Origin: a virus
Lineage: Duplodnaviria > Caudoviricetes
Reading direction: 5' to 3' (one strand)
IMG/VR virus record: IMGVR_UViG_3300038560_000015
Coordinates: 1-60,397 of that record
Length of the DNA: 60,397 bases
The position numbers were made by a program, and so were the translations under genes. Below the pieces are notes generated by a model. It did not search any database, was not told the DNA's origin, and saw nothing but the letters and a program-made list of their open reading frames with translations. The number at the start of each line of letters is the position of its first letter. Within the stretch, counting starts at the first letter, position 1. Below, one piece after another: positions 5,648-59,596 of this stretch.

Positions 5648-6048
5648 CCGTCGCCGTCTATACCATTGCCGAGGCGGCTGCGGTGCTCCGCAAAACCCCT
5701 CGATGGCTTGTCAACTGGCTGCGGGATAACCCGGTCGACGCGACCGGAACGCCGTTCTACACTCCGGCCGGCCGCACCAAGACATTCGACGATAGCGAGC
5801 TGTTCCGGATCCGTGTGGCGATGCGTGAGGCAGAGCAATGCCGCTTAAGATCATCACGTCCCGCAACAAGAAAACGAAAAACCTCTATATCCGCGGCTCG
5901 TACCTCGGAGTCCGAGTGGACCAAAGCTGCAAGACTGGCAAACGATCCGTCGCTGGCGGAATTCTCAAGCGGCTCGAAGCCAGCATCGAAAGAGGCGAGT
6001 ACCCACCGCGTGAAGCTGGAACTCGTAGCGACGAACCGACATTCTTGA
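5644..6048 (+). CDS. Excisionase-like HTH protein overlapping the int start
   Basis: YTIAEAAAVLRKTPRWL...KTFDDSEL; immediately upstream of int. Confidence 0.65.
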   Translation: MTVAVYTIAEAAAVLRKTPRWLVNWLRDNPVDATGTPFYTPAGRTKTFDDSELFRIRVAMREAEQCRLRSSRPATRKRKTSISAARTSESEWTKAARLANDPSLAEFSSGSKPASKEASTHRVKLELVATNRHS

Positions 6049-6881
6049 CCGCGGCAAACGCCTACATGGAAGCCGGAAGGCCGGCGCGCTACGTCGCGCC
6101 GCTGATCAAACATTTTGGCGAGACGCCAATCGCCGCGATCGATCAGGCCGCGATCGATGCCGCAGCCGTCGCCTTAGTGCCGAACGGCACGCCGATGAAC
6201 CGGACGCGGCTGGTCTACACGCCCGTCTCGGCGATCATGCACCACGCCGGCGACAAGCGGCCGATCAAGCGGCCGAAGGGTTTCCAGGGCCGCACGATCA
6301 CCGACTGGATCGTGCCGGAGGACGCGTTCGGCATCATAGCCGGCGCCGACACGTTCGATCCCGAATTCGGCACGCTCCTGTGCTTCCTACTCTACACTGG
6401 GCCGCGGATCAGCGCCGCGCTCAGCCAGCAGCGCGAGGATTTCAGGCTCGATGACGGCCGTGCGTGGGCGCGCAACCAAAAGGGCCAGCCGCACATGGAC
6501 ATCCGCTTACGCGCCGACCTCTGTGATCGCTTTAGAGCGCTGCTGGCGAGCCATGACCGCCATCGCGTGTTTCGGTGGCACTACGGCGCGCACCTCGCCC
6601 ACTTGCTCACGCGCGCCAAGCTGGCCTATCTGGGCATTGAGTGTCCCGTGCGCCGGCCGATCGGATGGCGGCAGCCGCCCAACCGTCTTAAGTGGGTGAC
6701 TTTCCACATCTGGCGCCATACTTGGGCGACTTGGATGCGGCATACAGGTGTTGACGTGAAGGGTCTCGTCGCCACCGGAAACTGGCGCTCGGAGAAAGCG
6801 GCATCACGCTACGCCCATGCCGTGGCGCGCCAGGAGTGGGATCACGTCGAGAAGCTGCCGGGGATGAAGGTGAAGGCATGA
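5838..6881 (+). CDS. int: Tyrosine integrase
   Basis: Catalytic set: GPRISAAL (R), KG, HIWRHTWATW (HxxR), GNW, RYAH (Y). Confidence 0.92.
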   Translation: MPLKIITSRNKKTKNLYIRGSYLGVRVDQSCKTGKRSVAGGILKRLEASIERGEYPPREAGTRSDEPTFLTAANAYMEAGRPARYVAPLIKHFGETPIAAIDQAAIDAAAVALVPNGTPMNRTRLVYTPVSAIMHHAGDKRPIKRPKGFQGRTITDWIVPEDAFGIIAGADTFDPEFGTLLCFLLYTGPRISAALSQQREDFRLDDGRAWARNQKGQPHMDIRLRADLCDRFRALLASHDRHRVFRWHYGAHLAHLLTRAKLAYLGIECPVRRPIGWRQPPNRLKWVTFHIWRHTWATWMRHTGVDVKGLVATGNWRSEKAASRYAHAVARQEWDHVEKLPGMKVKA

Positions 6882-7160
6882 GCGATCTGCTGAACGGGGA
6901 TTTTCTCGGGCCGGTCATCGACCGCCTTTGGCCGCGCACCTTTGGCCTCTCGCCTTGGCGAAAACGTATCGCTGTTGCGCTGCTTGATCCGATTGAGCTG
7001 CAGGCTTCTGCGGAGGCCTTGATTAGTTTTTGCCGCGCTATTGGACCATTGATGGGTCCGATGGGGAAACATAGGGGAATTGAATGATGCCGTCCGCCAG
7101 CTCAATTGCCGTGGCGCGCCAGGAGTGGGACAACGTCGAGAAGCTGCCGGGGATGAAGGT
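6818..7160 (+). repeat. 54-bp direct repeat of the int 3' end (6818-6871 and 7107-7160)
   Basis: 52 of 54 bases identical. Confidence 0.92.
6878..7087 (+). CDS. Hypothetical 69-aa cassette protein
   Basis: ATG overlaps the int stop; ends GKHRGIE. Confidence 0.55.
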   Translation: MSDLLNGDFLGPVIDRLWPRTFGLSPWRKRIAVALLDPIELQASAEALISFCRAIGPLMGPMGKHRGIE

Positions 7161-7264
7161 CGCGAAATGATTGAGACGTCAGAGATCGAAAACGCCGCCG
7201 CCGTTCTCGCCTTTTCCCGGTTCAAAATCCCGATCGACGAAGCGCGAAAGCTTGTATCTGAAAT

Positions 7265-8113
7265 CATGCTTATCCGGTTGACGCATACAGGTCGAAAATG
7301 ACACCACATCTAGTGTTCCCTTCATGGTCTACCTGTAGAGTTGAGCGCGAGTTCCAGCGTCTCGACCGGCCGGGCGCGCGCGGGCCGGTCAACGAAAAGG
7401 TCGGGGCGCGCCAGCGCGTCACTGATGCGTCGGCGCGCCAAATCGAACCACTTTTGGTCGATCTCAATTCCAGTGAACCGGCGGCCCGCCTGAACGGCGG
7501 CAACCCCGGTCGTGCCCGAACCACAGAACGGGTCGAGGATGGTTTCACCGGGTTCCGAAAACGCCGCGACCCACTGGCCTACCAAGCCGAGCGGCTTTTG
7601 CGTGGGGTGTTCGCCCTGTTCGATAGGGCAATGCCAAACGGCATGGTGACCGCCGTTATTCCATCGCTTTTTGCCCTCGCGATGCAAAATAGCGATGGCT
7701 TCCCAGCCTGTTCCGGGGCGATCCACAGTAAACTGCGGCGCGCCGTTCGGCTTAATCCACACGCCAAGGCGCACCAGGGGCACGCCAGCGGCCTCAAGGC
7801 TCGCGGCGTGCCGCCACTCGCACGTCATGACGACCCAGCGATTGGCGGCCTCTACAAAGGCACGGCAGAGCCCCGCCAAATCTTCGCTTGTGATGCTCGG
7901 AAAGTCGATTGTCGTCCGGTCGAGCGAGTTTGCGGAGCGCGCGCCAGCATGAGTCACGTCGCCATAAGGCGGGTCCGTCATGATGACATCCGCGCGCGGG
8001 AGCGTAGGCAGAATCTCGCGGCAATCCCCCATATATATAGTGATGCCTTCCGCCAAAGTTTCCGTGCGCGTCGTCAACATCTAGTACCTGTATGCGTCAA
8101 CCGGATAAGCATG
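7265..8113. mobile_element. Non-autonomous insertion cassette (probably IS1595-family-derived) carrying a DNA methyltransferase
   Basis: Perfect 28-bp TIRs CATGCTTATCCGGTTGACGCATACAGGT (7265-7292, 8086-8113); 8-bp TSD TCTGAAAT (7257-7264, 8114-8121); no transposase; family assignment is inference. Confidence 0.9.
7322..8080 (-). CDS. N6A/N4C DNA methyltransferase, beta class
   Basis: GDC, TDPPY, HPTQKP, ILDPFCGSGTT, GIEID. Confidence 0.93.
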   Translation of the reverse strand: MLTTRTETLAEGITIYMGDCREILPTLPRADVIMTDPPYGDVTHAGARSANSLDRTTIDFPSITSEDLAGLCRAFVEAANRWVVMTCEWRHAASLEAAGVPLVRLGVWIKPNGAPQFTVDRPGTGWEAIAILHREGKKRWNNGGHHAVWHCPIEQGEHPTQKPLGLVGQWVAAFSEPGETILDPFCGSGTTGVAAVQAGRRFTGIEIDQKWFDLARRRISDALARPDLFVDRPARARPVETLELALNSTGRP

Positions 8114-8204
8114 TCTGAAATGATCAACATCGTCGACACGATGCGCGGCTACGCTCGCCAGAATCGCGATATCAATGGCGTCCCGCTGTGATGAAGGTGA
8201 GGGC

Positions 8205-8414
8205 ATGAGCAACCAAGCTTTAGCTGCGAGCTTTGAGACCGGCAACCATGATCAGATAGCGCGGTGGAACCATCAGCTTTATATCGGCGAGCCAGCCATC
8301 ATCATCCTCGATGGAAAGCAGATGCGAATAACCGACCTCACTGAGACGCCGGATGGCCGATGGGAAGTGACGTGCGTCGAGTGGTTGCCGGGGAAATATA
8401 GGGGAATTGAATGA
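8205..8414 (+). CDS. Hypothetical 69-aa cassette protein
   Basis: Same leader and terminal sequence as 6878-7087; ends GKYRGIE. Confidence 0.55.
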   Translation: MSNQALAASFETGNHDQIARWNHQLYIGEPAIIILDGKQMRITDLTETPDGRWEVTCVEWLPGKYRGIE

Positions 8415-8592
8415 CGACGCCGGCTAACCCATTGAACAAAAACACGTCGGCGACTTCTATCCGAAGATTACGCCGCAGTTCGGCGAATGCTCGAAACCCG
8501 CGCGAATACGGCACTTCTGATGTCCGCTCACGACGCAAACTGACGGAACGAAGCGCGAAACTCCCCCAATCGCACGGGGAATATACGGGGAC
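8390..8592. other. Probable attP region
   Basis: Downstream of int, bracketed by tandem GGGGA arm-like repeats (8390-8406, 8576-8592); core not identified. Confidence 0.45.
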
Positions 8593-8635
8593 TTCGGACC
8601 CGTTACGTTCCGGCGTGCCTCGAACGGAGAACAAA

Positions 8636-8821
8636 ATGGGTTACTTCATTGTCAGTCGAAATCCGCACGACAATAAGCCGCTCGTCGCCACAGACGAGCA
8701 TGGAGAGATTGCCGAATTCGATACGGAGCAGGCGGCGACAAATGCCGCCAAAGAAATCATGATGTGCAAATGGGGCTTTGAGATCGTCGAAGTACCAGCG
8801 CAATGCTCTCGCACGCCTTAA
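8636..8821 (+). CDS. Hypothetical protein
   Basis: GGAG RBS before MGYFIVSRN. Confidence 0.6.
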   Translation: MGYFIVSRNPHDNKPLVATDEHGEIAEFDTEQAATNAAKEIMMCKWGFEIVEVPAQCSRTP

Positions 8822-8836
8822 CAACAGAAAGAGCTA

Positions 8837-8959
8837 ATGAAAATGAAACTGCGCTGCATCGTCTGCAAGCACACCGAGACGCGCGAAGCGCCGACCGAGC
8901 AGCCTATGTGCCCAAAATGCTACGGGATGATGATATGCGAAAAAGTCTCCTCTCGCTGA
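8837..8959 (+). CDS. 40-aa zinc-ribbon protein
   Basis: MKMKLRCIVC...MCPKCYG; below the ORF-track cut-off. Confidence 0.55.
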   Translation: MKMKLRCIVCKHTETREAPTEQPMCPKCYGMMICEKVSSR

Positions 8960-9183
8960 TCCGTCCGGCCTGCCCATATTGCGACGGCGCTGGCGGCTTC
9001 ATGGATGGCTACTACGAGCCGGAATGGTCGGGCTGTCGGTGTTGCGATCCGAACGAGGAACGAATGGATGAGCCAGTCACGCGGGTATGGCGCTGGCATT
9101 GGTGGGCGTTTCGGTTCGGGGAATGGCGGGAGAACCGCCGTCTCGATAAGTGGATTGACCAGCAACCGGAAGTGCGGCCTTAA
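8935..9183 (+). CDS. Cys/Trp-rich hypothetical protein
   Basis: CPYCDGAGG...CRCC. Confidence 0.55.
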   Translation: MRKSLLSLIRPACPYCDGAGGFMDGYYEPEWSGCRCCDPNEERMDEPVTRVWRWHWWAFRFGEWRENRRLDKWIDQQPEVRP

Positions 9184-9528
9184 CGCGGCGCACGCAACGA
9201 ACAACAGGAAAGAGTTATGACTGAACCAACGACCTGCGCGCATACGAACTTCAAATCTCTCGTCCGTGTCGGCCGACTTACTGAGGGCGGCGATGGCCCG
9301 GTGACCGGATACTCCGCTGACGTTCGGATTGAATGCACCGATTGCGGCTTGGCGTTTCGGTTCCGGGGCAAAGACTATGGCTCAAGTCCAGACCGGCCGA
9401 TGCTATCTGCGGACGGCTTGGAATTGCGTGCACCGATTGAGCCGGCGCACGTCGCGGAGATTCTCGGGATGCCGTTGGTTGCTGGAAATGCGTGATTGGT
9501 CTTAACGCGGCGCACGCAACGAACAACA
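9179..9528 (+). repeat. 28-bp perfect direct repeats flanking gene 9217-9495
   Basis: CTTAACGCGGCGCACGCAACGAACAACA at 9179-9206 and 9501-9528. Confidence 0.92.
9217..9495 (+). CDS. Hypothetical zinc-binding protein
   Basis: CAH...IECTDCGLAFRF. Confidence 0.7.
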   Translation: MTEPTTCAHTNFKSLVRVGRLTEGGDGPVTGYSADVRIECTDCGLAFRFRGKDYGSSPDRPMLSADGLELRAPIEPAHVAEILGMPLVAGNA

Positions 9529-16083: not shown

Positions 16084-16853
16084 CATAAAAACCAATGCGC
16101 GACCTTGGCCCAGAAGCCTTCGCTGATGCCGGGGTCGACGTGGCCGCCGAGATCAGCTTCGGGAGGCTGAACCGCTTGTGCGATGATCTCGCCGCGCCAC
16201 ACCTTGGCGAGCTGATCGCGCGTGCCGTTGAACAGCGACAGGTCGGCGCTGGCCTGCAGGCCGTCGAGCGTGTGCGGCTGGTTGCCGACGCCGTCGCCGG
16301 TGAACTGCCAGAGGAACGGTGCCGGCCATGGCAGCGGCTTGCCGTTGGCGTCGACCATCTTGCATTCCGGACCATATTCCGGAATCCACGGCGCGTGATC
16401 GGCGAGGAAGTCCCGCTGCGCATCCGTCGCGCCGACGATGAGCGACTTGATCCAGTCGCCGCTATAGAGCGTGGTGGCGCGCCCGAAGGCCTGGTCGACG
16501 CGATCGAGGAATTCGATCGCGCCGGAAAGCGTCATCTGCGCGCCTTCGGGATTGCGTTCGAAGTCGAGCGCGCGCAGCAAATTCGGAATATCCGGCGACG
16601 TCGCCTTGATGAAGCGCGCGGCCTGGATCGCGGCGGTCTCGCCGGTATTGAAGGCATAGGCGCCGGGCAGCAATCCCGCAGCGATGATCTGCGGCAGCCG
16701 CGTTCCGTAGGCGACGTCGACCGCGCCGTTCGATCGCGTGGCGCGATGAATGACGCCGGCGCATTTGATGCCGTTGTAGCTCGCCGCCGCCAGCTTCTTG
16801 AAATCGACGGTATTGAGCGAGCCCAGATCGGCGACATAACAAAGATCGGTCAT
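16083..16853 (-). CDS. Endolysin, glycoside hydrolase family 25
   Basis: GVIHRAT, GAYAF, ALDFE (DxE), LYSG, LWQFTG, DLS. Confidence 0.88.
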   Translation of the reverse strand: MTDLCYVADLGSLNTVDFKKLAAASYNGIKCAGVIHRATRSNGAVDVAYGTRLPQIIAAGLLPGAYAFNTGETAAIQAARFIKATSPDIPNLLRALDFERNPEGAQMTLSGAIEFLDRVDQAFGRATTLYSGDWIKSLIVGATDAQRDFLADHAPWIPEYGPECKMVDANGKPLPWPAPFLWQFTGDGVGNQPHTLDGLQASADLSLFNGTRDQLAKVWRGEIIAQAVQPPEADLGGHVDPGISEGFWAKVAHWFL

Positions 16854-30158: not shown

Positions 30159-32126
30159 CTAGGCTGCGCTCGGATTGAGCGCCTGAAACCCGCTCAACGC
30201 GCGGGTGAACTGCGGCATCATCTGATTGATCCAGGCCTGCGTGCCGATGACGGGGCCGTTGAAATGGAATTGGATCGGATTGCCGCCGCCACCGCTTCCG
30301 CCCCCGCTATACGGAGTATTGACACTCGCCGGCACCACCGTCTCACCCTGGTGCACGATCGCCAACCCGCTCGACTGCACAAAGCCACCGACGTCGAGCG
30401 CCGACATGCCTAGCGCGGTTGCTTCCACCGTCGCGGCAATTCCCGCAGCCGCGGCTGGTGCCGCCGGGCCGAGCGTGAGCGCCATATTGGCGACTTCGCC
30501 GGCATAGACCACGCCAACATTGGCCTGGATCGATTTTGCGGCGTTGGCGAGCAAGGACGCCGGAGCGCCGACCGCCATCGCGAGCTGTGCCGCAATCCAT
30601 TCGACGACGATCTTCTCGATGCCTTCGATGAAGGCAATAACCAGATCGCCCATAATCTTCTTCATCGCCTGGCCCCAAGTCTCGGTGCCGGCGAGCAGCG
30701 CGCGAAGCTGCGAGTTAAAGCCGCTCTCGATCGGCTGCAGTACGGATTCCCAAGCCTTGGTATCGTCCTTGAGCTGTGCCTGCGTCGCCTGCTCGTGCTC
30801 TTTCAGATAAGCCTGATAGGCCGCCTGCTCGTTTTTGAGCACCGCGTTATATTGTGCCGAACCTTGCGCATAGAGCGTCTTTTCCCGCTCGAACAGCGCC
30901 TGCTCGATCGCCCAACGCTCGTCGAGCGCGGCGAGAAGCGCCGCAGTTTCCTGGTCGACTGTGATCTTGTGCGCGGCGACGTCGCCGGAATATTGCTGCT
31001 TCAACAGCGCGTAGGAATCCTGCGCCGTCTTGATCATCGACTGATATTGTTCGGCGACAGCCTTTTCGGCGCCGGCATTCGGCGCGGCGGACGATGGCGC
31101 AGCCGGCCTATTATCATTCGAACCGGACTGTGCCGCCAAGAGGTCTCCGTAGGCGACCTTGGCGTGCGCCACCATGGCGTCGAGTTCGGCGACATAGTTC
31201 TGGTCGGCATCCTCGATATGCGCCATGCCGGCCGCATAATCGTTGGCGAGCGTCGCCGGCGAGGCGACGAAGAAGTCCTTCATCAGGGTCGCGGCCAGCG
31301 ACACGTCGCGCCCCAGCCGCTCCCACGCTTCCGACGCTACCTTTGCGACGAAAGTGCCAAGCGTACCGGCGGATGCCAGCGCCGTCATATCGCTCGCCGC
31401 CGTGGTCAACCAATCGGCCGCGCTATCCAGGCTGGTCGAGAAATAGCCGACCAATGTCCCGCCAAGCGCCGTTAGGGATGCCCGCAGCGTAACGCCTTTT
31501 AGCTCGACGCCGTCCAGCGCCTTGACCATCTGTGTCGTCATGACGGTGCCGGCACTCACGGCAGCCTCAGTCAAAGCCTTGACGCCTTCGCTGCCTTTAT
31601 CGAGAACCGGCAGTAACGTCTGAGCGCCGTTCCTCACCAACTCGTTCGCCAGCGCCGCCTTCTGGCCGCCGTCGGCATACTTGGCGAACGCATCGGCGAG
31701 CTTGAGTATCTGCTGATCGATCGGCAGCGCGGCCAGTTCCTTGGCCGACAATCCCATCGCCTGAAGGGCGCGCGCCGTCGGGCCGAGTCCGCTCTGCGCA
31801 AGCTGCAGGTTCTGCTGCAGCCGCGCCAGCGTCTGCACGAGGGTATCGGAATCGACGCCGGAGGCCTTGGCCAGGTAGCCGTATTTCTGCACATCGACCG
31901 CGGAGAGCCCTAGCACCGTCGACGCCGTATCGACCTTTTCGCCGAGCTCGGCCATCGCACTGACGAAGCTCTCAATGCCGCTGATGCTAAAGCCTATGCC
32001 GAACGCCTCGGCGAGGCTTCGCGCCGCCTGGCCGATGCCGTCGATCGACGACTTGACCTGCTCAACGCCGGCGACCAGCGGGGCGATGTTGGCGCCGAAT
32101 GTGACCTGGACGTCGCTGCCAGCCAT
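30159..32126 (-). CDS. Tape measure protein
   Basis: 655-aa Ala-rich helical protein after the chaperones; AIVHQGETVVPA near the C-terminus. Confidence 0.88.
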   Translation of the reverse strand: MAGSDVQVTFGANIAPLVAGVEQVKSSIDGIGQAARSLAEAFGIGFSISGIESFVSAMAELGEKVDTASTVLGLSAVDVQKYGYLAKASGVDSDTLVQTLARLQQNLQLAQSGLGPTARALQAMGLSAKELAALPIDQQILKLADAFAKYADGGQKAALANELVRNGAQTLLPVLDKGSEGVKALTEAAVSAGTVMTTQMVKALDGVELKGVTLRASLTALGGTLVGYFSTSLDSAADWLTTAASDMTALASAGTLGTFVAKVASEAWERLGRDVSLAATLMKDFFVASPATLANDYAAGMAHIEDADQNYVAELDAMVAHAKVAYGDLLAAQSGSNDNRPAAPSSAAPNAGAEKAVAEQYQSMIKTAQDSYALLKQQYSGDVAAHKITVDQETAALLAALDERWAIEQALFEREKTLYAQGSAQYNAVLKNEQAAYQAYLKEHEQATQAQLKDDTKAWESVLQPIESGFNSQLRALLAGTETWGQAMKKIMGDLVIAFIEGIEKIVVEWIAAQLAMAVGAPASLLANAAKSIQANVGVVYAGEVANMALTLGPAAPAAAAGIAATVEATALGMSALDVGGFVQSSGLAIVHQGETVVPASVNTPYSGGGSGGGGNPIQFHFNGPVIGTQAWINQMMPQFTRALSGFQALNPSAA

Positions 32127-39568: not shown

Positions 39569-41079
39569 CAGTCGACGACCTCTTCCTCGGCCGGCGTCGG
39601 CTCCTTGCCCTCGGTCTCGGTCGGCGCGGCGATTTCGTCGGACGCCGCCGGCAGCGCCGGCTTCGCACCGTTAGCGCCGAACGGCGACGCCCCGATATTG
39701 GCTTCGACCGGAACGTAGCCCTGCGCCGTATAGGCCATCGGCTTGTCGGCGGCCGGATCGTTGTAACGCTCCATGCCGATATTGTCGCGAAACTCATTGA
39801 GCGTGATGGCGCCGGCCTTGACGCGGCCTTCGAGCACGGTTTCCTGCTTGACCGGATCGGTGTCGTCCTCTTCGATCCACACCAGTTCGATGTCGGAGGA
39901 ATCCAGTTCGTTGGCGACGATGTCGTCGATCAGATCCTTGATCCACTCCTTGGTCGGCTCAAGACCCTCTTCTTCAGAGGTTGTCGAATGTTCCTTCGCC
40001 GTCGCACGGTTCATCATGCTGACGGCCCATTGCGGATTGACCGAAAAGGCGTAGCAAATGACCCGCGCCAGCCACTCGTCGAACACGCTTTTCTGATCCG
40101 GCTCCTTGGTCTGATGCACCTTCATGGCGACGTCGCCGGGCACGAACTTCGCCCGCCGCCGCTTGCCGAGATCACCTGAGAATTCCGTGTCCCAATATTC
40201 CTGGAATTGCTTGATCTGCTGCACCGTCCAGGTCGTCGGCACGCCGATCAAGGCGTCGGGGATCGAGCCTTCGGTGTAGTAATCGAGCTGCCACAACTGC
40301 CGGCGCAGCGCGATCTGCACGGTGATCAGCACCTGCTGCACCGGCGAATAACCATAGGCACGATGCGAGCGGATGTTACGCGGCCGATAGATGATATCGC
40401 GGGTCGAATAGTTGACGGCAGGAAGGCCTTTGAGGATTTGCTGATAGGCCGGCGGATAGACCATGCCTTCCGGACCGCGATACGGCAGCGGCGTGCGGCC
40501 CCAATCGTCGATCACGCGCTTGATGGTGCCGCCGTCGATCTGATGCAGCGCCAGCAACTGGCCGCCGCGGCTGCGCTGGCAATAAAGCGTCGCCGCGTCG
40601 ATGACGAACATGTCTTCGAGCAGCGAGCGTATCCAACCTTTCCAGCTCGTAAAGCCGTCCGGCCGGCGCAAGAAGCTGATGACCTTGTCGATCCGGCCCT
40701 GCATGTCCGCCGGGCGCTTGCTCATGCGGCGGAGCACCGGATCGCGCGGCTTGACGGTCCAGCGCAGGCGCTCGACCTGGTCCTTGCGTGTCTCGATGAC
40801 GAGCCGCAGCAGATCGCAGGCATCGGCGAACCAGCGCAGCTCGGAAAACCCGATCGGCTCGAAGGCCCGCGGCCGGGTCTGCAGGTTGTAGCCGGGTGCG
40901 TAATCGAAACGCCGGCCGGCGACCTCCGGTGGCGCCGTCGGCGCCATAGGATCGAGCGGCCCGAACCAGTCGGCACCAGTGCCGCGGGTGATGCCGGCCG
41001 AGGCGCCGTACTGCACATTGACCGTATAGGGATCGAGCGCCCAGGTCGGTCGCCCGGCGCCGCGCTGCGGATCGGCCAT
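39568..41079 (-). CDS. Portal protein
   Basis: IDGGTIKRVIDDWGRTP; YGYSPV; EEEGLEP; TLNEFR. Confidence 0.9.
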   Translation of the reverse strand: MADPQRGAGRPTWALDPYTVNVQYGASAGITRGTGADWFGPLDPMAPTAPPEVAGRRFDYAPGYNLQTRPRAFEPIGFSELRWFADACDLLRLVIETRKDQVERLRWTVKPRDPVLRRMSKRPADMQGRIDKVISFLRRPDGFTSWKGWIRSLLEDMFVIDAATLYCQRSRGGQLLALHQIDGGTIKRVIDDWGRTPLPYRGPEGMVYPPAYQQILKGLPAVNYSTRDIIYRPRNIRSHRAYGYSPVQQVLITVQIALRRQLWQLDYYTEGSIPDALIGVPTTWTVQQIKQFQEYWDTEFSGDLGKRRRAKFVPGDVAMKVHQTKEPDQKSVFDEWLARVICYAFSVNPQWAVSMMNRATAKEHSTTSEEEGLEPTKEWIKDLIDDIVANELDSSDIELVWIEEDDTDPVKQETVLEGRVKAGAITLNEFRDNIGMERYNDPAADKPMAYTAQGYVPVEANIGASPFGANGAKPALPAASDEIAAPTETEGKEPTPAEEEVVD

Positions 41080-43235: not shown

Positions 43236-45146
43236 TTAGGTCGTGGCGAGCGCCACGGATGAAACGCGTTCAAACCCGATGTCGATAAGCGAAGCACTGT
43301 CCTGTTCGTCGACTTCAATGGTGCCATCGGCGCCGACGATGTACTGGCGCCCGGACATGCTGGACACATTGGAAATACCCGCCGGGGCGCGCAGGCAGAT
43401 TTCCTTTTTCGATCCCGCCGCGACGGTCGCGACAGCCGGCGACTTGGCGGCTTCCGACGCCGCACGGTAGAATTCCAAGATACCGCGGGCGCCTTTCGGC
43501 TCCGGATTGCGGATCATCACGTCGGCGGCGTCCCACAGCGCGAACACCGGATCGACCTTGGCATCGCCGGCGCTCTGCTTGGTCGCCGCTATCCCGGAGC
43601 GGCCGGCTTCGATCTTCACGTTGCCGACGCACCAATTCATCAGCGCGCTGGGCGAATGCAGGAGGGAGCCGTTCTCGAGCTTGCGTTCCGTCGTCTTGAT
43701 AGCACGCATCAAGCGCCAGCCCTGACCGATGCCGACGATCTGCTCGCTTGCCTCGTTGACGCCGATCTTGTCGAGCTCGTCGACGAGCTCCCCGTAGGGG
43801 CCCTCGTTGTCGATCGCGACGGCGGCGAGCAAGCCCGCGTCGTTCACCTTGGCGATCAGATCGACGACGGCGAGGATGTCCTGGTCGGCGCTGTCGATGA
43901 AAGTGAGGTCGCCGAGCTTTTCGAAGTCCTCGAGCAGCGAGGCGATGGCCTTGCGCCGTTCCAGCACCTTGCGATGGCACCAGGCGTGTGACCACAACAG
44001 CCAGCGCTTGGTTTCCCTTTCACGCCCGAGAGCCGCAAAGCCGAACAGATCGTCGAGCCCACCGCCATCGAGACCGATCACGATCGCCTCGCAGCGCGCG
44101 ATCAGGTCATCAAGCCTCAGAACCTTTTCGTCTTCGGACGTTGACCAGAACTCGGCGCCGGCCCACGATTCCGACTTGAGCCCGATGCCGATCTCGATGT
44201 TGAGATGCTGCGAGGCCCAGATCCGCTTCGCCTGCTCGTTCTTGGACTTCTCGGTTTCCCAGTCCGGGATCAGGCTCGTTAGGTGCATCGACCGGCCGAG
44301 GTTCGGCATCACCATCGGCCAGTTGACAGGATTGCTCCACTTGTCCTGGTCCTTGGCGATGTCGGCCGGGAACTCGTAGATGATCGGCAGCATGGACCGC
44401 ACCTCGCGATCCTTGAACCGGCCATCGCGGATCCCGCGCGCCATCGCGAGCTCGTCCTTCATCACGCCGGCGGGAATGTCGTCGCTCGCCGTCGTGGTGA
44501 TGAGAAGCAATCCCTCCTGCGTCTTTTCAAGGCCGCCGCGGATTTGCCGCAGCACCTTGGCCGCGTAGGGCAATCGGCCCAGCAAGTGCAGCTCGTCGAC
44601 CAGCGCCAGAAATAGGATCGAGCCGGTCAGGATATTGACGTCGAAGGTCTTGACCCGAAGCTCGGAGCCGGTGACCAGGTCCTCGATCGTTTTGACGTGG
44701 TCGCGGGTGCGAAACCGCCGCTTCAGGTCGACCGAGGCCTCGATCATGCCGGTCGCCTTGTCATAGGCGTTATCGGCGATGGCTTGTGTCGGCCCGACGA
44801 ACAGCGCCTCGGCGCGCGGCCGTCGGTTCATCAGCATGCCGACCAGTAGCAGGCCGGCAGAGTAGGTCGTTTTCGACTGCCCCTTCGGCAGCATCGCGAA
44901 GATGTCGCGGATGTAGCGGACCCGGGCGACCGGGTCCCACGATCCGAAGGCGACGCGGACGATGTCGCGAAACCACTGCCCGGCGGCGTCGCGCATCCTT
45001 GGCAGGCCGGGCTGATCGGGAAGCTGCAGCTCGTCGAAGAACTGCAGCCCGATGTCCGCCTCGCTCTCGATCAGCGGCAGCTTCGGTATGAGCGACCGGC
45101 CGGCCCGGATGCGGGCCTCCCAATCGACGCAGGAGGTGTCCCACAT
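43236..45146 (-). CDS. terL: Terminase large subunit with C-terminal extension
   Basis: PKGQSKTT Walker A; LVDELH Walker B; ITT; GLDGGGLDDL; KVDP. Confidence 0.92.
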   Translation of the reverse strand: MWDTSCVDWEARIRAGRSLIPKLPLIESEADIGLQFFDELQLPDQPGLPRMRDAAGQWFRDIVRVAFGSWDPVARVRYIRDIFAMLPKGQSKTTYSAGLLLVGMLMNRRPRAEALFVGPTQAIADNAYDKATGMIEASVDLKRRFRTRDHVKTIEDLVTGSELRVKTFDVNILTGSILFLALVDELHLLGRLPYAAKVLRQIRGGLEKTQEGLLLITTTASDDIPAGVMKDELAMARGIRDGRFKDREVRSMLPIIYEFPADIAKDQDKWSNPVNWPMVMPNLGRSMHLTSLIPDWETEKSKNEQAKRIWASQHLNIEIGIGLKSESWAGAEFWSTSEDEKVLRLDDLIARCEAIVIGLDGGGLDDLFGFAALGRERETKRWLLWSHAWCHRKVLERRKAIASLLEDFEKLGDLTFIDSADQDILAVVDLIAKVNDAGLLAAVAIDNEGPYGELVDELDKIGVNEASEQIVGIGQGWRLMRAIKTTERKLENGSLLHSPSALMNWCVGNVKIEAGRSGIAATKQSAGDAKVDPVFALWDAADVMIRNPEPKGARGILEFYRAASEAAKSPAVATVAAGSKKEICLRAPAGISNVSSMSGRQYIVGADGTIEVDEQDSASLIDIGFERVSSVALATT

Positions 45147-51152: not shown

Positions 51153-52181
51153 CTAATTCGAGGGGGGGGGTGCGTTGGCTTCGTCGAACTTGGCGAGGTC
51201 GAAGAGTGCCGGCTCCATCGGCGTTTCTTCCGGCACATAGCGGGCTTTAAGATTGAGAACTGCCTGGCGGAAGTACGATGGCTTTAATTCAGCGCCGACC
51301 GCGCGGCGTCCCATCTGCACGGCGGTGACCAATTCGGAGCCGATGCCGGCGAATGGCGAAAACACCACGTCATGCTCGTTGCTCCAAAGGTCGACGCAGC
51401 GGCGGATGACGGTCAGTTGCAGGGGTGAGATATGGCGCTCGTCTTTTTCATCGCGAACACCATCGCGCGACAGGACGTCACTCGGCGCAATGTCGCTCCA
51501 CACCGGCTCGGCGTAGCGCTGCCAGACGGCGATGCTGTAGCGCTCGTCCCCCGGCCACAGCGTCTGCCGTCCGTGCATTCGCGATTCCTGCACGATCGGC
51601 CCGTGCGGCGTCGTTTCCGTGCCGAAGTAGCAGTCCATGATGCCGCTGATTGGCTCAGGATTTTCGCCGGGCTTGCGCATTGTGACGATGTAATCGGCCA
51701 CAGCCATGCGGGAGAGTGCTGAATCCTTGGCAAGCTGTTTATGCAGAAGCCCAATGTGTTTGGTGCGCTGCATCGCCTGCACCGGGTCTTTTCGGATGCA
51801 AACTTCCGAGTGGTAGATAAAACCGGCGCCAACATGTGCCCGGATGATCTCGCCGCGGAAATCGCGCAAGCCGATATAGCCATCGCGCGTCTTGCTTGTA
51901 GGCAGTTGCATGCAGTGGATCGATATGAGCCGGCCGGGCTTTGTGATCCGAAAGCATTCCTCGATCAGAAACTCATAATGCGCCCAAAACTCAGCGAACG
52001 ATGTGCAATTCGAGATGTCGCGAAGATCGTCAGAGAAGGTAAACAAGCCCGGGAATGGCGGGCTATAGATCGTATAGTGCACGGACGCATCGGGAAGTCC
52101 GCGCGCAACCTCTACGCAATCGCCGTTCCAGATCGCCCAGTCGTCGCCGATAACCTGATCGGCCACTGTCACGTCAGCCAT
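51153..52181 (-). CDS. Amino (probably N4C) DNA methyltransferase
   Basis: GDC; SPPF; HISPLQL; SPFAGIGSE; ELKPSY. Confidence 0.9.
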   Translation of the reverse strand: MADVTVADQVIGDDWAIWNGDCVEVARGLPDASVHYTIYSPPFPGLFTFSDDLRDISNCTSFAEFWAHYEFLIEECFRITKPGRLISIHCMQLPTSKTRDGYIGLRDFRGEIIRAHVGAGFIYHSEVCIRKDPVQAMQRTKHIGLLHKQLAKDSALSRMAVADYIVTMRKPGENPEPISGIMDCYFGTETTPHGPIVQESRMHGRQTLWPGDERYSIAVWQRYAEPVWSDIAPSDVLSRDGVRDEKDERHISPLQLTVIRRCVDLWSNEHDVVFSPFAGIGSELVTAVQMGRRAVGAELKPSYFRQAVLNLKARYVPEETPMEPALFDLAKFDEANAPPPSN

Positions 52182-54619
52182 TGCGGCACCTGCATAGGCT
52201 TGTCGTGGATTGAGATCGTGCGCTGCGGTCGCAAATTGACGGCCGTCAAATCGCGCATGTGCTCGGCCATCGATGCCGCCATGTAGTCGGCAGCCTCTTC
52301 CTTGGCTTCGAGATTAGCGACGACCGCGCCTTCCACGTCGGCGGCGACGAGATGAACATTGACCGCCCTGGTTTGACCGAAGCGCCAGCAGCGGCGGATC
52401 GCTTGATAAAGCTGCTCAAAGCTGTCGTTAAGCCCGACGAACACCATGTCGGCACAGCGCTGAAAGTTCATGCCCCAGCCGGCAATGCTCGGCTTGCTGA
52501 TCAGTATTTGATGTTCACCTCTCGCAAAGCCTAGAAGGCGCGCGGCCTTCACATCCGGATCGTCGCTGCCGCGAACCTCGATCGCGCCTGGGATCGCCTG
52601 CGTGAGCGCGGAGGATTCATCGTTGAGATTGCACCAGACGAGCCATTGTCGGTCACGCGCGCTGTTGACTATCGCCGCAGCGGCGGCCACGCGCTCAGTC
52701 AAGGTATTGCGTCGGGCGGCAAGTCGCTCTTGAAGGGTCCGTGCCAGTTGAGGTTCAAGCAACCCCTCGCTGCCCTTGGTCTTGATCGTGACCGGGAATT
52801 TGTTAAGCGCGGGCAGATCATAACCCGCCTCTTCGTAACCGAGATCGCGCGGATGGCGGATCAGGACCGACCATGACGCCAGCCAGCGCCAAAAATCATC
52901 CTCGGCATGCCCCTTAAGGCGCCAGTCGCTGCCCTGCCGAAGGCCATGGTTCTCGATATTTGTGGCGCGGCTCGATCCGTCATGGACGAACCAAGTAGCG
53001 AGCATTTCCTTGTGCTGCAAAATGCCGAGAAATTCGGCATGGTTGCCGAGTTCGACGTAATCGTTAGGTGCCGGCGTTGCCGTGCAGCACAGCCGATATT
53101 GTGTCTCTGCGAATGTCTCGATCAGAGATTGGCGCGTCTTGCCGTCAAACGCTTTGAGGATGCTCGATTCATCAAGCACGATGCCTGCAAATTTAGAGGC
53201 ATCGAATTTTTCCAGCCGCTCGTAGTTCGTCACAACGATGCTGCTGGCAGCCTCGGCTTGGCTTCGCGCGTAGGCGACAGACGCTATTGAAAATCTCTCC
53301 GCCTCCGCGACCGTCTGTTGGGCAACGGCAAGCGGCGTCAGGATCAGAACAGGTCCAGCAAACCGGCTCACAATCTGATCGGCCCACGATAGCTGCTGTA
53401 TCGTCTTTCCGAGACCGGTGCCGGCGAATATTGCCGCCCTGCCGCGCTTAAGCGCCCAGCGCACGATATCGCGCTGGAACGGCTTTAGCGCGGGATTGAG
53501 AGCGTCGCCCGTTATATCGAAGCCGTTCGCAATCGGCAGGCGAATCTTGCTTTCGAGAAAGTGCCGGTACTCGCCATTGCGTTTGTGGCCTATAGCGGGC
53601 GCGTCATCCTCATCCTTCCAAGCCAATTTCTCGGCCAGCTTGAGCATCCAATCCGGATCATCGGGAAGCGAGCCGGCAAGCGCTGGATTCGCGACAGCGC
53701 CTGCCGTCTCTGGCGCTACGGATTGGGCTGGCGGGCTCGCCTCCGTAGCGATCGGTTCGTCCCCGCGAGCTTCTGCCCGCTCCTCACGCGGCGCAGCTTC
53801 CGCTTGTGTTTGCAGCGCAGGCTCTTGGTGGACATGGTCGTCTCCTTTATCGAACTTCTGCCAATGCGCCTCGATCGCGGCGTCCATTTCGTGATGCTGC
53901 GATGGCCGATAGGCAAACGATGCGCCGCAGTCGCAGGCGCCGATGCTCATCGGCTTGTCGGGATCGGAATAATCGATGGTGTGGTGAACGACGTGGCCGG
54001 CTGGATAGACCTTGCGGGCTTTGTTTTGGGCGACGAGTTCGGCGACGACCGGATCGGTTATATGCGCCGGCGGCCCGGCGCTTTCTTTTTCAGCGTCGCT
54101 CGCTTCGCTTTGCGCGCTGTGTGCGGGCCGAGGATGTCGCGCTCTTTCAAGATGTTCTTCATCCTGAGAACGTTCCTGCTGGCACGAATCGGCTTGTGTT
54201 TCGGCTTGCGGCTCATCGGCACTCTCCGACTTTATCCTAGCGACGGACGGCTTGAGCGACAACGCCCATTCGATCATCCGGCCCGCGGCGCCGGCGTCCC
54301 AATGGATGCCCTGGTCGGCAGACTGTCGCGCAAAGCGCCGGAAATCCTTGATCTTGCGCGCGATCGAGCAGCGCAGCGCCGCTTCTCTTGTCGGGAATTG
54401 CGGATTGTCGATCGAGAAGCCGTTATGGCGCACAAGCCATTGGCCGTTATCGAGAGGCAGTACGCCGATGATCGCGACCGCCGAGCGATGCTGCGGATTG
54501 TCGGGCTCGAATATCTCGCCCTGATCGTCGCGGAAGAAACGGCCCATGCCGGCTTGCGGCGGCTCGCCGGTGGCCGTCTGCAGAAGCGGAGCGATCAGGT
54601 TGGGGTCGTGGGCGTTCAT
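52169..54619 (-). CDS. SNF2-like helicase with long N-terminal extension
   Basis: GTGLGKT; DESS; TATPAPND; QAIRRCWRFGQ. Confidence 0.9.
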   Translation of the reverse strand: MNAHDPNLIAPLLQTATGEPPQAGMGRFFRDDQGEIFEPDNPQHRSAVAIIGVLPLDNGQWLVRHNGFSIDNPQFPTREAALRCSIARKIKDFRRFARQSADQGIHWDAGAAGRMIEWALSLKPSVARIKSESADEPQAETQADSCQQERSQDEEHLERARHPRPAHSAQSEASDAEKESAGPPAHITDPVVAELVAQNKARKVYPAGHVVHHTIDYSDPDKPMSIGACDCGASFAYRPSQHHEMDAAIEAHWQKFDKGDDHVHQEPALQTQAEAAPREERAEARGDEPIATEASPPAQSVAPETAGAVANPALAGSLPDDPDWMLKLAEKLAWKDEDDAPAIGHKRNGEYRHFLESKIRLPIANGFDITGDALNPALKPFQRDIVRWALKRGRAAIFAGTGLGKTIQQLSWADQIVSRFAGPVLILTPLAVAQQTVAEAERFSIASVAYARSQAEAASSIVVTNYERLEKFDASKFAGIVLDESSILKAFDGKTRQSLIETFAETQYRLCCTATPAPNDYVELGNHAEFLGILQHKEMLATWFVHDGSSRATNIENHGLRQGSDWRLKGHAEDDFWRWLASWSVLIRHPRDLGYEEAGYDLPALNKFPVTIKTKGSEGLLEPQLARTLQERLAARRNTLTERVAAAAAIVNSARDRQWLVWCNLNDESSALTQAIPGAIEVRGSDDPDVKAARLLGFARGEHQILISKPSIAGWGMNFQRCADMVFVGLNDSFEQLYQAIRRCWRFGQTRAVNVHLVAADVEGAVVANLEAKEEAADYMAASMAEHMRDLTAVNLRPQRTISIHDKPMQVPQWLT

Positions 54620-56673
54620 TCCGCAGCCTCGCGCGCGAATTCCGGAACGCCGTTATCGTTGACTTCAAGCGGAGCGAAGTTCGCCTCGACCAGCGCCCGC
54701 GACATGGGCGGGCAGACGCTGTTGCCGCATTTCGAGACCTGATCGGTTTTGCTGATCGGCCGCTCGATCAGCTTGCCGACGTGACCGGCACTGATCTCGA
54801 TATGCTGGCCGCGATTGATGATATAGCTGTCGGGAAATCCTTGCGCGCGGAACAGTTCGCGCGGCGTCAGCATCCGCATGCCGATGTCGGCGATGACGTA
54901 AGTCTCGCCTTTGATCTCGACCGTCACGGCCGCGTAGCGGTCCTTGCAATCGATCGTGTGCAGAGGATCATCAGCCGCCTGGTGCTGCCCGCCGGAGCCG
55001 TGCGCTTTCGTCAGGAACGCGCTGACGGCCGCCTGGTGACCGCCTTGCGCACTGACGGTCGCCGCCGGACTTTCGACAGGACGCGGCATGAGCTGATCGT
55101 CGGCCGTGCCGCGCATGTTCATAAGGCCGGCCGAGACGACGGCCTGATGCGATCCGCTCTGCAGAATCGTTGACGCCGGCTCGCGCGCATCGCGGCCGGG
55201 ATTTTGCACGCCGCCGCGGCTGACGTTGTGCTGGGCGAGGAACGCCGCGACCAGACCGAAGCGGTTATATTGCGACGTCGCCGTATGCAGCGGCTCGGCG
55301 GCGCCGGATGCCGGCTTGTCGCCGAAATTATTCTTGGTGACGTGTGCGGCGATGACGGCGTGCCGAGGATCGCCGGTCACCGTGCGGATCGGCTCTTCGG
55401 CGCTCGCCGAGCGGTCCTTGCCTCCGGCGCCATCGCCAAAGAATGCAGAGAGGTGTGCGGTCACCACATTCAAATGCGCGCCGCCGGCAGTGACGACGTG
55501 TGTCGGCTGGTCCGCGCCGTTGAACGGCTTTTGCGCGTTGCGGTTCGTGTTCAGGTGTGCTGCGACCAGGCCATGCTTGACGCCGCCGGCGACGACAGTG
55601 CCGAGGGGCTTGTCGAGACCGGGGACGCGAGGATCCTGTCCGTCCCGCTCGCCGTAGCCAGTTTGAATGAGCGTCGGCGCGATAATGGCGTTGGCGTCTT
55701 TGCGCGATGCCGTGACGGTGTGCAGCGGCTCCTCCGCTGATCGTACCGCGCCTCCTTGCTGCGCGTAGGTCACGACTGGCGAGACGATAGCTTTTTCGCC
55801 GCGATGCGCGCCGGTTACCGTCATGAACGGCTCGGTTACCGCCTCACCTCGTTCGCCGCCCTGATGCGTCAACGAGACGATGAACGGCTCTTTGGCGTCG
55901 ATCACATAGCGCTTCACGCCCTTGGCGATGCGCGCCATCGTGGCCGGCGCCAGCGGGCGCTTGATGCCGAAGGGTTTGGCTTCCTCTTTCGTCAGGAAGA
56001 TCGAATAGCACGGGAGCGACCAATCGATGACCTCGGCGGCCGTGCGCCAGGGCAGAAGCTTGCCGGATTTCACGGCATCGGCTTTCGGATCGCCGTGCGT
56101 CGGCACCGGCCAGATGATCGGCAGGCCGTCGCGGCGGGCGATCAGGAACAGCCGCTTGCGGATGGTCGGCGCGCCGTAGTCGCAGGCGCGCAGCTCGCGC
56201 CATTCGACCTTGTAGCCGAGCTTATTAAGCTCGCCGATGAAGCGGTTGAATTCCTCGCCCTTGCGCAGCTTGCACGGACGGTTGTCGTCGCCGAGCGGCC
56301 CCCAGGTTTTGAACTCTTCGACGTTTTCCATCATGATGACGCGGGGCGCGACCTGGCGCGCCCACTTCACGATCACCCAGGCGAGGTCGCGGATTTTCTT
56401 CTCGACCGGCTTGCCGCCCTTGGCCTTACTGAAATGTTTGCAATCCGGACTGGCCCACAATAGCCCGACCGGGCGGCCCTGGCAGACGGCGGACGGATCG
56501 ACCTTCCAGATATCGTGCGGGATGTGCATCGTCGCCGGATGATTGATCCGGTGCATCGCCATGGCGGTCGCGTCGTGGTTGATCGCGATGTCGGGAGAAA
56601 TCCCGAGCGCCATTTCGATGCCGGTCGAAGCACCCCCGCCGCCGGCAAAGCTATCGACGATCAATTCCCGCAC
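54616..56673 (-). CDS. C5-cytosine DNA methyltransferase with repeated variable region
   Basis: FAGGGG; SPDC; ENV; R.RLF; RMLTPRELFRAQGF; GNSV. Confidence 0.93.
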   Translation of the reverse strand: MRELIVDSFAGGGGASTGIEMALGISPDIAINHDATAMAMHRINHPATMHIPHDIWKVDPSAVCQGRPVGLLWASPDCKHFSKAKGGKPVEKKIRDLAWVIVKWARQVAPRVIMMENVEEFKTWGPLGDDNRPCKLRKGEEFNRFIGELNKLGYKVEWRELRACDYGAPTIRKRLFLIARRDGLPIIWPVPTHGDPKADAVKSGKLLPWRTAAEVIDWSLPCYSIFLTKEEAKPFGIKRPLAPATMARIAKGVKRYVIDAKEPFIVSLTHQGGERGEAVTEPFMTVTGAHRGEKAIVSPVVTYAQQGGAVRSAEEPLHTVTASRKDANAIIAPTLIQTGYGERDGQDPRVPGLDKPLGTVVAGGVKHGLVAAHLNTNRNAQKPFNGADQPTHVVTAGGAHLNVVTAHLSAFFGDGAGGKDRSASAEEPIRTVTGDPRHAVIAAHVTKNNFGDKPASGAAEPLHTATSQYNRFGLVAAFLAQHNVSRGGVQNPGRDAREPASTILQSGSHQAVVSAGLMNMRGTADDQLMPRPVESPAATVSAQGGHQAAVSAFLTKAHGSGGQHQAADDPLHTIDCKDRYAAVTVEIKGETYVIADIGMRMLTPRELFRAQGFPDSYIINRGQHIEISAGHVGKLIERPISKTDQVSKCGNSVCPPMSRALVEANFAPLEVNDNGVPEFAREAAE

Positions 56674-57959: not shown

Positions 57960-58319
57960 TCACCATTGCTTGCCGTTGGCGCGCAATCGCGCTTCGGCTT
58001 TGTGGTCCGCCCGCTGTTTGTTGTAAGCCCGTTTCTCAGCGACGGCCGCGTCCAGGTCGTAACCGAAGGCGCCGCAGTAATCGAAAATTCTGATTAGAAC
58101 GTCGGCGAATTCCACTTCCGCCATCCGCCGATGCGGCAGATGGTCGTCCATTAAATTCTTGCGCTCGCCTTCCATGGCCTCCGACAGTTCGGAGTGCATG
58201 AGGCAGATCATCTCGCCCTTGTTGCGATTGAGACGCTCGCCGGTCGCGGGATTGCGCCACCAATGCTCGTTCTCAGTATGACATTCGCGCGCGAGATCGT
58301 TGAGCGGAGTATTGCTCAT
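57960..58319 (-). CDS. MazG-like nucleotide pyrophosphohydrolase
   Basis: LMHSELSEAMEGERK; EVEFADVLIRIFD; EKRAYN..RADH. Confidence 0.8.
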   Translation of the reverse strand: MSNTPLNDLARECHTENEHWWRNPATGERLNRNKGEMICLMHSELSEAMEGERKNLMDDHLPHRRMAEVEFADVLIRIFDYCGAFGYDLDAAVAEKRAYNKQRADHKAEARLRANGKQW

Positions 58320-59596
58320 TCTGCCGCTTCCGCAGGTAAGAGGGATTGCTGTTGCGGGACGTTGGCTTCGTTGCCCCAGCCGAACCACGTTTCCGGAAGC
58401 GCACCGTTGATGCGCGGGAACAGCTCGACCTTCGGCAGATCGGGGTAGTAAGCGGTGATCAGATCGCGGAAATATTTCGGCTTGGCCGAATGCTTGCCGC
58501 GCGCCTCGCGATAGAGCGACGGCCGCAACAGCGACGGCTCCGGCGCCGGCATCTTGCCGCGCGTCGCGATCAGCAAACACTCATGCGCGCTGCGGTTCCA
58601 GAAGCCCATGCCGAGCGCGGCCTTGTCCCAGGCGAACTCGGAGACGTATTCAAAACCCCAGCCCTCGATCAGCCGCATGGTTTTGCGGAGCCACGGCACG
58701 GTCGACCAGATGAAGAGAACCGCGTCAGACGTCGCCAGCGCGCCGATCGGCAGCTTGGCGATCTCTTCCTCGGTCATGGTCGGATAGTGGTTTTCGGTCG
58801 AGCGGTCGCTGTCGCCGGCGGCGAATTTTGTCGGCGGATCCATGTAAAGGACCGGGAATTTACGCTCGGTCGGCAGTTCGCTGTTGCCGACGGAGATCGC
58901 CGCAAGCTTGCCGATGCGTTCGCCGCGGCGCTTTTCGTTTTGCTCCTTGCGGATTTTCTTGGCCGCTTCGAGGATCTCTTTTTCCGAGAGCTTGGCGACT
59001 TCGCGCTGTTGCTCTTGCGGCAGGCTGGCGAGATCGGCTGCCGTCGAGACTGCAACGCGCCCTTCGTCGACGGCTTGCTGCAGCTCTGGCGCGCCCTTTT
59101 CCTGCACCGCTGCCGCGCTTTGCAGGCTGCGCCGACTGACATTGAGCAGCTCGGCCGCCTCGCCTTGCGCCACGATCGGCACCGGCTCGGAGGCCTCGAC
59201 GCCGGGCAGCGTGGGTGCGCAAATTTGCGCAGCCTCGCGGGTGTGCTGGTTGGAGCCGACCTTGAACTTGGCGAGCCGCGCCGCCACCATGGCGCGCTGG
59301 CTTTCGTCCATGTGCCGGCGCTTGAGATTCTTCGAGACGACGTAATTGAGCGCAGCGCGATCGTCGCCGACGAAAAGCTCGGTGCGCACCGGAAGTGTTT
59401 TAAGCGCGCACGCCCGATAGCGGTTGCGGCCATCCAGGATCATTCCGCGATGCAGCTTGACCGTCTCTGCCTGGCCGTTGGCGGCAATGTCGTCGGCGAG
59501 CTCGGCAAGCTCGGACGCCGGCAACGGCGGGAATAAGTTCGCCATCGGATGGTCTTTAAGCGGCGCATGGCCGGGCATGAGGGTCGAGCCGGTCAT
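58316..59596 (-). CDS. ParB-like domain, HTH and MT-A70 methyltransferase fusion
   Basis: HP.ANLFP; ILDGRNRYRAC; N..RRH..ESQRA; QGEAAELLNVSRRS; DPPT; WGFEY; HS.KP; VELF. Confidence 0.88.
   Translation of the reverse strand: MTGSTLMPGHAPLKDHPMANLFPPLPASELAELADDIAANGQAETVKLHRGMILDGRNRYRACALKTLPVRTELFVGDDRAALNYVVSKNLKRRHMDESQRAMVAARLAKFKVGSNQHTREAAQICAPTLPGVEASEPVPIVAQGEAAELLNVSRRSLQSAAAVQEKGAPELQQAVDEGRVAVSTAADLASLPQEQQREVAKLSEKEILEAAKKIRKEQNEKRRGERIGKLAAISVGNSELPTERKFPVLYMDPPTKFAAGDSDRSTENHYPTMTEEEIAKLPIGALATSDAVLFIWSTVPWLRKTMRLIEGWGFEYVSEFAWDKAALGMGFWNRSAHECLLIATRGKMPAPEPSLLRPSLYREARGKHSAKPKYFRDLITAYYPDLPKVELFPRINGALPETWFGWGNEANVPQQQSLLPAEAAE
59215..59237. repeat. Dispersed palindrome copy inside the ParB-fusion gene
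   Basis: GTGCGCAAATTTGCGCAGCCTCG. Confidence 0.9.

Follow-up and report, generated by a model that had tools for sequence, protein, structure and literature searches.

How does a DNA methyltransferase gene come to lie between transposon ends in the genome of a phage? Could such a gene have been delivered by an element that is unable to move by its own means? Phage genomes are generally regarded as poor in transposable elements. The DNA that raises these questions, here called the window, corresponds to an entire IMG/VR virus record of 60,397 bases, for which CheckV gives a completeness of 100%. It is a tailed temperate phage from soil, with genes for a large terminase (43239-45146), a portal (39571-41079), a tape measure (30162-32126), an endolysin (16086-16853) and a tyrosine integrase (5838-6881); tail proteins, a replication protein and helicases are encoded as well. 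The element in question sits about 380 bases downstream of the integrase gene. We conclude that it is very probably a non-autonomous derivative of the IS1595 family, that is, a mobile insertion cassette, which was presumably moved into the phage in trans with a methyltransferase as its passenger.

The element measures 849 bp (7265-8113). Its two 28-nt arms, the left terminal inverted repeat on the plus strand (7265-7292) and the right one on the minus strand (8086-8113), are 100% complementary and enclose an interior of 793 nt. An 8-bp target-site duplication, TCTGAAAT, abuts the left repeat at 7257-7264 and recurs identically beyond the right repeat at 8114-8121. An earlier reading of this locus, made from the letters alone and referred to here as the sequence-only reading, had described an 849-bp element with perfect 28-bp repeats and an exact 8-bp duplication, its interior nearly filled by a methyltransferase gene. 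Each of these features was recovered: the arms agree at 28/28 positions, TCTGAAAT is present on both sides, and the sole long sense ORF of the element (7322-8080, minus strand, 252 aa) occupies 759 of the 793 interior bases. A 5-nt spacer (8081-8085) separates the ATG of this gene from the right repeat at its inner end, and 29 nt separate its stop codon from the left repeat. Larger end modules extend beyond the repeats themselves. The left module (7265-7338) consists of repeat and subterminal sequence and is common to cassettes with unrelated cargo, and the right module (8070-8113) comprises the repeat, the 5-nt spacer ACTAG, and the ATG and first codons of the cargo; it also provides an AGG 6 nt before that ATG. 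A 297-aa ORF on the plus strand (7298-8191) runs antisense through the whole methyltransferase gene and the right repeat, and enters the 3' part of an interrupted 55-aa ORF in frame. This ORF, and similar ones that overlie transposase genes, are probably artefacts of GC-rich coding DNA.

What did the insertion interrupt? In silico excision of the element with one copy of the duplication (857 bp) joins 7167-7264 to 8122-8191, both on the plus strand, and yields the open 55-aa frame that the sequence-only reading had reported. The ATG of the 5' part overlaps the stop codon of a remnant of the integrase 3' end in an ATGA junction. The 55-aa ORF has no relative among the fetched loci (best E 0.087), so it is uncertain whether a real gene was broken. 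The last 54 nt of the integrase gene (6818-6871) recur 289 nt downstream at 7107-7160 with 96% identity. Two small ORFs, at about 6878-7087 and 8205-8414, have a 21-nt repeat (6863-6883 and 8190-8210, 95%) and a 42-nt repeat (7063-7104 and 8390-8431, 81%) at their starts and ends. These repeats of the integrase region look like recombination scars or boundary sequences of module exchange.

What kind of enzyme does the element carry? The cargo matches PF01555 (N6_N4_Mtase) with an E value of 3.1e-21 and 76.8 bits (cut-off 26.7) and the DNA methyltransferase family phrog_67 with an E value of 3.2e-50, and its residues 15-220 match the small adenine methyltransferase structures 5hek and 5hfj. The DPPY motif at residues 36-39 aligns with the DPPY of CcrM, and FCGSGTTG aligns with FFGVGTTG (6pbd); the catalytic DPPY thus stands before the SAM-binding FxGxG motif. 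A catalytic motif ahead of the SAM-binding motif defines the beta class of DNA methyltransferases, and DPPY points to adenine-N6 as the methylated position. Judged by these motifs, the cargo is probably a beta-class adenine-N6 DNA methyltransferase. Over 7000 relatives of it are found in the protein collection. Because the element leaves no space for another gene, and because three flanking ORFs show no Pfam match at E <= 0.01, we regard the cargo as an orphan enzyme rather than as one half of a type II restriction-modification pair. The phage has three other methyltransferases in its replication module, namely a resident N6_N4 methyltransferase (51156-52181), a C5 methyltransferase (54619-56673) and a protein with ParB-like and MT-A70 parts (58319-59596), and the cassette therefore adds a fourth. 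Identity between the cargo and the phage's own N6_N4 enzyme is 28% over 95 residues. A scan for sigma-70-like promoters in 6800-8600 returned 0 sites against 0.8 expected, and the cargo gene is oriented against its neighbours; its expression is for these reasons unproven. Six sites vary among the near-identical copies of the element described below, 3 of them synonymous and 3 not, with no sign of selection in either direction.

Does the phage encode a protein that could move the element? The 60,397-bp record contains no candidate for PF12762, the DDE domain of the IS1595 family, and 0 of the 58 ORFs scanned matched a PHROG family named transposase at E <= 1e-5, in agreement with the earlier statement that no transposase is found in this genome. 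With a methyltransferase as its sole sense gene and PF12762 absent from the record, the element is classed as an IS1595 derivative and not as an insertion sequence. Since the phage has no IS1595 transposase, we infer that the movement took place in trans.

The ends of the element are found far more widely. Exact matches to the outer 18 bases of the repeat were found in 114 stretches of viral contigs and in 111 of bacterial genome contigs, the latter spread over many phyla and groups, including Nitrospirota, Alphaproteobacteria, Desulfobacteraceae, Planctomycetota, Acidobacteriota, Verrucomicrobiota and Bacteroidota. Elements were called by pairing forward and reverse 18-mer matches with up to 3 mismatches. 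Among the 59 pairs in viral loci, a number that includes 3 reverse-complement duplicates (L003/L009 twice, L017/L074), 45 are bounded by an exact 8-bp duplication, for which the chance per pair is 1 in 65,536; in bacterial contigs, 25 of 40 pairs are. The 8-bp rule on which the sequence-only reading had relied therefore holds well outside the window. Across the 45 viral elements bounded by exact duplications, the outer 15 columns are 93-100% conserved when both ends are taken together, and this nearly invariant core reads CATGCTTATCCGGTT in the left repeat of the window element. Seventy-four distinct exact duplications, read on both strands, yield a loose palindromic preference, R-W-W-Y-R-W-W-Y; they are 61% A+T, compared to a median G+C of 60% for the loci. 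The duplication of the window, TCTGAAAT, is AT-rich and fits this preference loosely.

The contents of these pairs differ between viral and bacterial DNA. A transposase preceded by 1-3 upstream passenger ORFs is found in 16 of the 59 viral pairs (1653-1983 bp) and in 2 of the 40 bacterial ones (L141, L189). Elements of about 1 kb with a transposase only account for 0/59 viral pairs and 11/40 bacterial pairs (979-1318 bp). Forty-three viral pairs (235-1136 bp) and 26 bacterial pairs lack a transposase, and 20 of these 26 are short (100-316 bp); a short transposase remnant alone was seen in one bacterial pair (L139, 915 bp) and in no viral pair. Where a viral element bears a transposase (16 cases), its passenger ORFs are tightly packed upstream of that gene, and in 23 of the 29 viral transposase-less cassettes with exact duplications the longest ORF begins 23-62 nt from a tip. 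Most cargo in the end family is without function by annotation. Recognisable methyltransferases occur in 3 of the 43 viral transposase-less cassettes, L016 (N6_N4), L071 (Dam) and L027 (phrog_56), and L011 carries a C5-like methyltransferase beside a transposase. A 675-bp sister cassette is present in cultured Ferrovibrio xuzhouensis KCTC 42182 (L181:2001-2675, duplication TAACAGAT) and in several viral contigs. One viral contig (L003/L012) shows three end pairs within about 3 kb (837-1576, 2001-2675 and L012:3217-3722), with an exact duplication only at the middle pair; this cluster may be an insertion hotspot or a stack of cassettes.

Are these ends truly those of IS1595 elements? In each of the 16 same-ended viral elements that bear a transposase, the enzyme is of the IS1595 type, and 15 of the 16 have both PF12762 and PF12760: 13 of the 14 long elements with antisense ORFs, plus L006 and L035. 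The L006 transposase matches NF033547 with an E value of 2e-54. The nearest named insertion sequence that we found is ISAcr1 of Acidiphilium plasmids, whose transposase is 63.9% identical in amino acids to that of L005. In the ISAcr1 copy of pACRY03, 13 of the 15 positions of the 15-nt core match at both ends, and the subterminal sequence is similar and contains CTAG. A relative from Tardibacter matches at 12 of the 15 core positions, shares the next 10 bases (GACGCATACA) and has an exact 8-bp duplication. The transposases behind the same ends, together with the ISAcr1 core, uphold the earlier assignment of the ends to the IS1595 type. Candidates for the autonomous partner, which the sequence-only reading had left to be found, are the same-ended transposase-bearing relatives; examples are L036 and L047, the ends of which differ from the 28-mer of the window at about 2-3 positions.

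A tree of 28 transposases (FastTree) contains a clade of 12, made up of 10 viral rows and 2 passenger-bearing bacterial rows, in which 12/12 are passenger-bearing and lie in elements of 1699-1904 bp. Other passenger-bearing viral elements mix with transposase-only forms in this tree. An ORF of 467-619 aa in the 14 long elements was considered as a new cargo family and rejected; it is antisense to the IS1595 transposase gene in GC-rich DNA. The transposase of L004:2868-3788 has the IS1595 zinc ribbon, with HNH_3 and HTH_23 domains in place of the DDE domain, and may represent a nested HNH endonuclease gene or a domain replacement.

Has the window element moved in recent times? Near-identical copies were found in X2 (6 differences in 850, duplication GAACCATT), in X3 (3 differences in 646 plus an identical 115-base piece, duplication AATCGTAA taken from two contigs), in X5 (2 differences in 656, with only the right flank seen) and in the further metagenome contig L246 (3 differences in 849, duplication CAAGCTAT). 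X2, X3 and X5 are three other metagenomes from three other studies; in all three the similarity breaks off precisely at 7264/7265 and 8113/8114, with different sequence in the flanks. A single element, at least 99% identical throughout, is thus seen at five insertion sites including that of the window, with an exact 8-bp duplication at three of the four other sites. These near-identical copies, each with a flank of its own, show recent transposition. The sequence-only reading had taken the restored frame to suggest a recent insertion, and the copies now give the same answer; it had also singled out further repeat-bounded copies as a point on which it could fail, and the same element turned up at four other sites. 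These four copies lie on contigs of 604-1005 bases, too short to classify as phage or cell. The wetland metagenome X5 also holds a 434-bp element with the same ends and a different interior (duplication GAATGAAC).

An allele of the site without the element, which had been proposed as well, was sought and not found in integrase relatives, in relatives of the downstream protein, in isolated phage records or in X1 contigs. The integrase has relatives in the viral contigs L117 (82% identity) and L118 (67%). Likeness between L117 and the window stops right after the integrase gene, and so it does in L118, whose contig ends at about that point. No relative of the 136-aa downstream protein was found in viral contigs, nor was a close relative of the phage among 50,697 isolated phage records. 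No X1 contig joins across the element, and contigs drop rare variants.

Could these observations be accounted for without recent transposition? The element might have come in long ago, either with a phage ancestor or through phage recombination, and might be an immobile relic today. The lack of a transposase in the phage agrees with this, as does the failure to find an empty site in the viral-contig relatives and X1 contigs. Against it stand the repeats, identical at 28/28 positions, the duplication, identical at 8/8, and the copies of at least 99% identity at four other sites, with different flanks and three exact 8-bp duplications; we consider such an origin improbable. Still less credible, in our judgement, is a spread by homologous or site-specific recombination at the end modules, in the manner of integron cassettes or homing elements, in place of DDE transposition. 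The end modules of about 44 and 74 nt that are common to cassettes with unrelated cargo would suit this idea, as would the methyltransferase of L258, which is 90.7% identical to a resident gene of L125 across the ORF alone. Each insertion, however, has its own 8-bp duplication, and the 74 distinct duplications share a loose consensus only, which is the signature of a staggered cut; moreover, same-ended elements encode a DDE transposase, and the window element encodes neither a recombinase nor a homing endonuclease.

Metagenome assemblies can misjoin repeats, which would make the element a chimera, or an inverted repeat might by chance surround an ordinary phage gene. The likely source sample, run X1, was nevertheless assembled independently as well, and one contig of that assembly covers 6200-9200 with 0 differences and even depth, so the junctions are not the artefact of one assembler. 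Searched with up to 3 mismatches, the 28-mer finds just the two arms in the window, whereas 100 dinucleotide-preserving shuffles give a mean of 0.00 matches, and dozens of other elements are bounded by the same ends. We therefore regard a chimera or a chance repeat as next to impossible, and retain the trans-mobilised IS1595 derivative as the explanation.

Where did the cargo originate? Among viral contigs, the nearest relatives of the methyltransferase show 55-72% identity, and 0 of their 14 loci show an end pair around the gene, so that the gene family of the cargo is mostly not cassette-borne. Cassette-borne relatives occur in the metagenome contigs L246 (99%), L249 (68%), L248 (66%) and L258 (40%); L249 has identical 28-bp repeats and the duplication GCTTGTTT. 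In a methyltransferase tree of 18 rows, picked as full-length matches, the window cargo groups with L246, L249 and L248 (support 83/80), and L258 pairs with the L125 gene, which lacks such ends (support 100/99). On this phylogenetic evidence, the cargo family has been captured by such ends at least twice, and the window, L246, L249 and L248 represent an older cassette lineage. The identity of 90.7% between L258 and L125 is confined to the ORF and excludes the end modules, from which it follows that a resident phage gene was captured; taken together with the shared end modules, the match also requires that some form of recombination exchanges cargo. A single origin of all 5 repeat-bounded methyltransferases was tried as a constraint and rejected, at a cost of 227 log-likelihood units (p-AU 6e-7).

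The end modules are shared with cassettes of other content. Positions 1-74 of the element show 86% identity with the 675-bp cassettes of L003, L009, L025, L058 and L181; a BLASTP comparison at E 1e-5 gave no match between their 214-aa cargo and the methyltransferase. Positions 806-849, including the ATG and first codons, are 93-95% identical to other-cargo cassettes (L003, L064). In the flanks of L248, L249, L141, L189 and L181, 2 of 19 ORFs have weak PHROG matches, of unknown function.

How, then, might the trans-mobilised derivative have reached its present site? An IS1595-type DDE transposase made elsewhere would excise or copy the element; its source could be an autonomous relative in the host chromosome, another prophage or a co-infecting phage. 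The temperate lifestyle would favour such an encounter, as the phage would pass its prophage phase in a chromosome that may hold the parent insertion sequence. Insertion would have occurred into the AT-rich 8-bp target TCTGAAAT inside the 55-aa ORF, downstream of the integrase gene, and repair of the staggered cut would have produced the 8-bp duplication. The inner end of the right repeat would then supply a Shine-Dalgarno-like AGG to the passenger that starts 5 nt further inside. If expressed, the passenger would give the phage a fourth methylation specificity, and the most likely benefit would be that phage DNA is shielded from host restriction.

A broader interpretation can be offered only tentatively, and we attach more doubt than conviction to it. 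The end family could be a delivery system adapted to phages, in which IS1595 masters that always bear passengers give rise to transposase-less offspring carrying single genes: integron-like in its output, run by a DDE transposase, and with methyltransferases as recurrent anti-restriction cargo, the recurring kinds being N6_N4, Dam, phrog_56 and C5-like. Cargo would be placed directly behind a repeat that gives it a ribosome-binding site and sometimes its first codons, and would be swapped at the 44-74 nt modules through capture of resident genes. Such a system would fit the transposase clade in which 12/12 elements bear passengers, and the distribution of transposase-only forms, 0/59 in viral pairs versus 11/40 in bacterial pairs.

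The sequence-only reading had pictured the element as a vehicle that spreads orphan methyltransferases among phages. The vehicle itself stands, given the copy in the window and the relatives in viral contigs; its restriction to methyltransferases does not, as they are found in 3/43 cassettes. What emerges is a concrete and recently active route of accessory gene gain, by way of a one-gene, translation-ready cassette whose transposase is not phage-encoded. In the case of the window, the gene gained is a fourth DNA methyltransferase, which probably helps to evade host restriction. In soil, peat and wetland samples, uncultured phages carry dozens of different single genes between these same ends. 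Most of the cassette genes are without a known function, so the cassettes point to a reservoir of genes that probably benefit phages and deserve testing. Since a sister cassette (L181) is present in a cultured bacterium, Ferrovibrio xuzhouensis KCTC 42182, a bench study of the system would be possible.

How does the window element compare with known systems? Our search of the openly searchable literature found no paper on IS1595-derived cassettes in phages. MIC231 derives from IS231, of the IS4 family, and resides in Bacillus chromosomes and plasmids. According to passages of PMC3129680, some members of the IS1595 family are 'transporter IS' forms, which bear passenger genes (Siguier, Gagnevin and Chandler 2009, cited there), and the ISfinder authors' term for transposase-less, passenger-carrying derivatives of insertion sequences is mobile insertion cassette. 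Like IS1595 insertion sequences, the window element has ends that resemble those of ISAcr1, an 8-bp duplication and same-ended relatives with a zinc-ribbon and DDE transposase, and its autonomous relatives bear 1-3 passenger ORFs upstream of the transposase. Unlike them, it lacks a transposase. It resembles mobile insertion cassettes in its insertion sequence ends, the missing transposase, the one unrelated passenger, the target duplication and the presumed mobilisation in trans. MIC231 of Bacillus cereus is such a cassette, as passages of PMC3129680 and PMC6199540 describe it (Chen et al. 1999 and De Palmenaer et al. 2004, cited therein). In contrast to MIC231, the cassette of the window is derived from IS1595 and located in a phage genome, and the single genes that its family carries in uncultured phages are of many different kinds. 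With MITEs it has in common that it is non-autonomous, with ends of the insertion sequence type and a target duplication, and the same ends bound members of non-coding size (100-316 bp) in bacterial contigs. Its 849 bp are nearly filled by an intact 759-bp ORF, however, and it is therefore not a MITE. The passenger, finally, is an ordinary member of the orphan phage N6_N4_Mtase enzymes (PF01555; phrog_67), 72% identical to a gene of L119 that has no such ends. Its position sets it apart: it lies between transposon ends, while the three other methyltransferases of the phage belong to the replication module.
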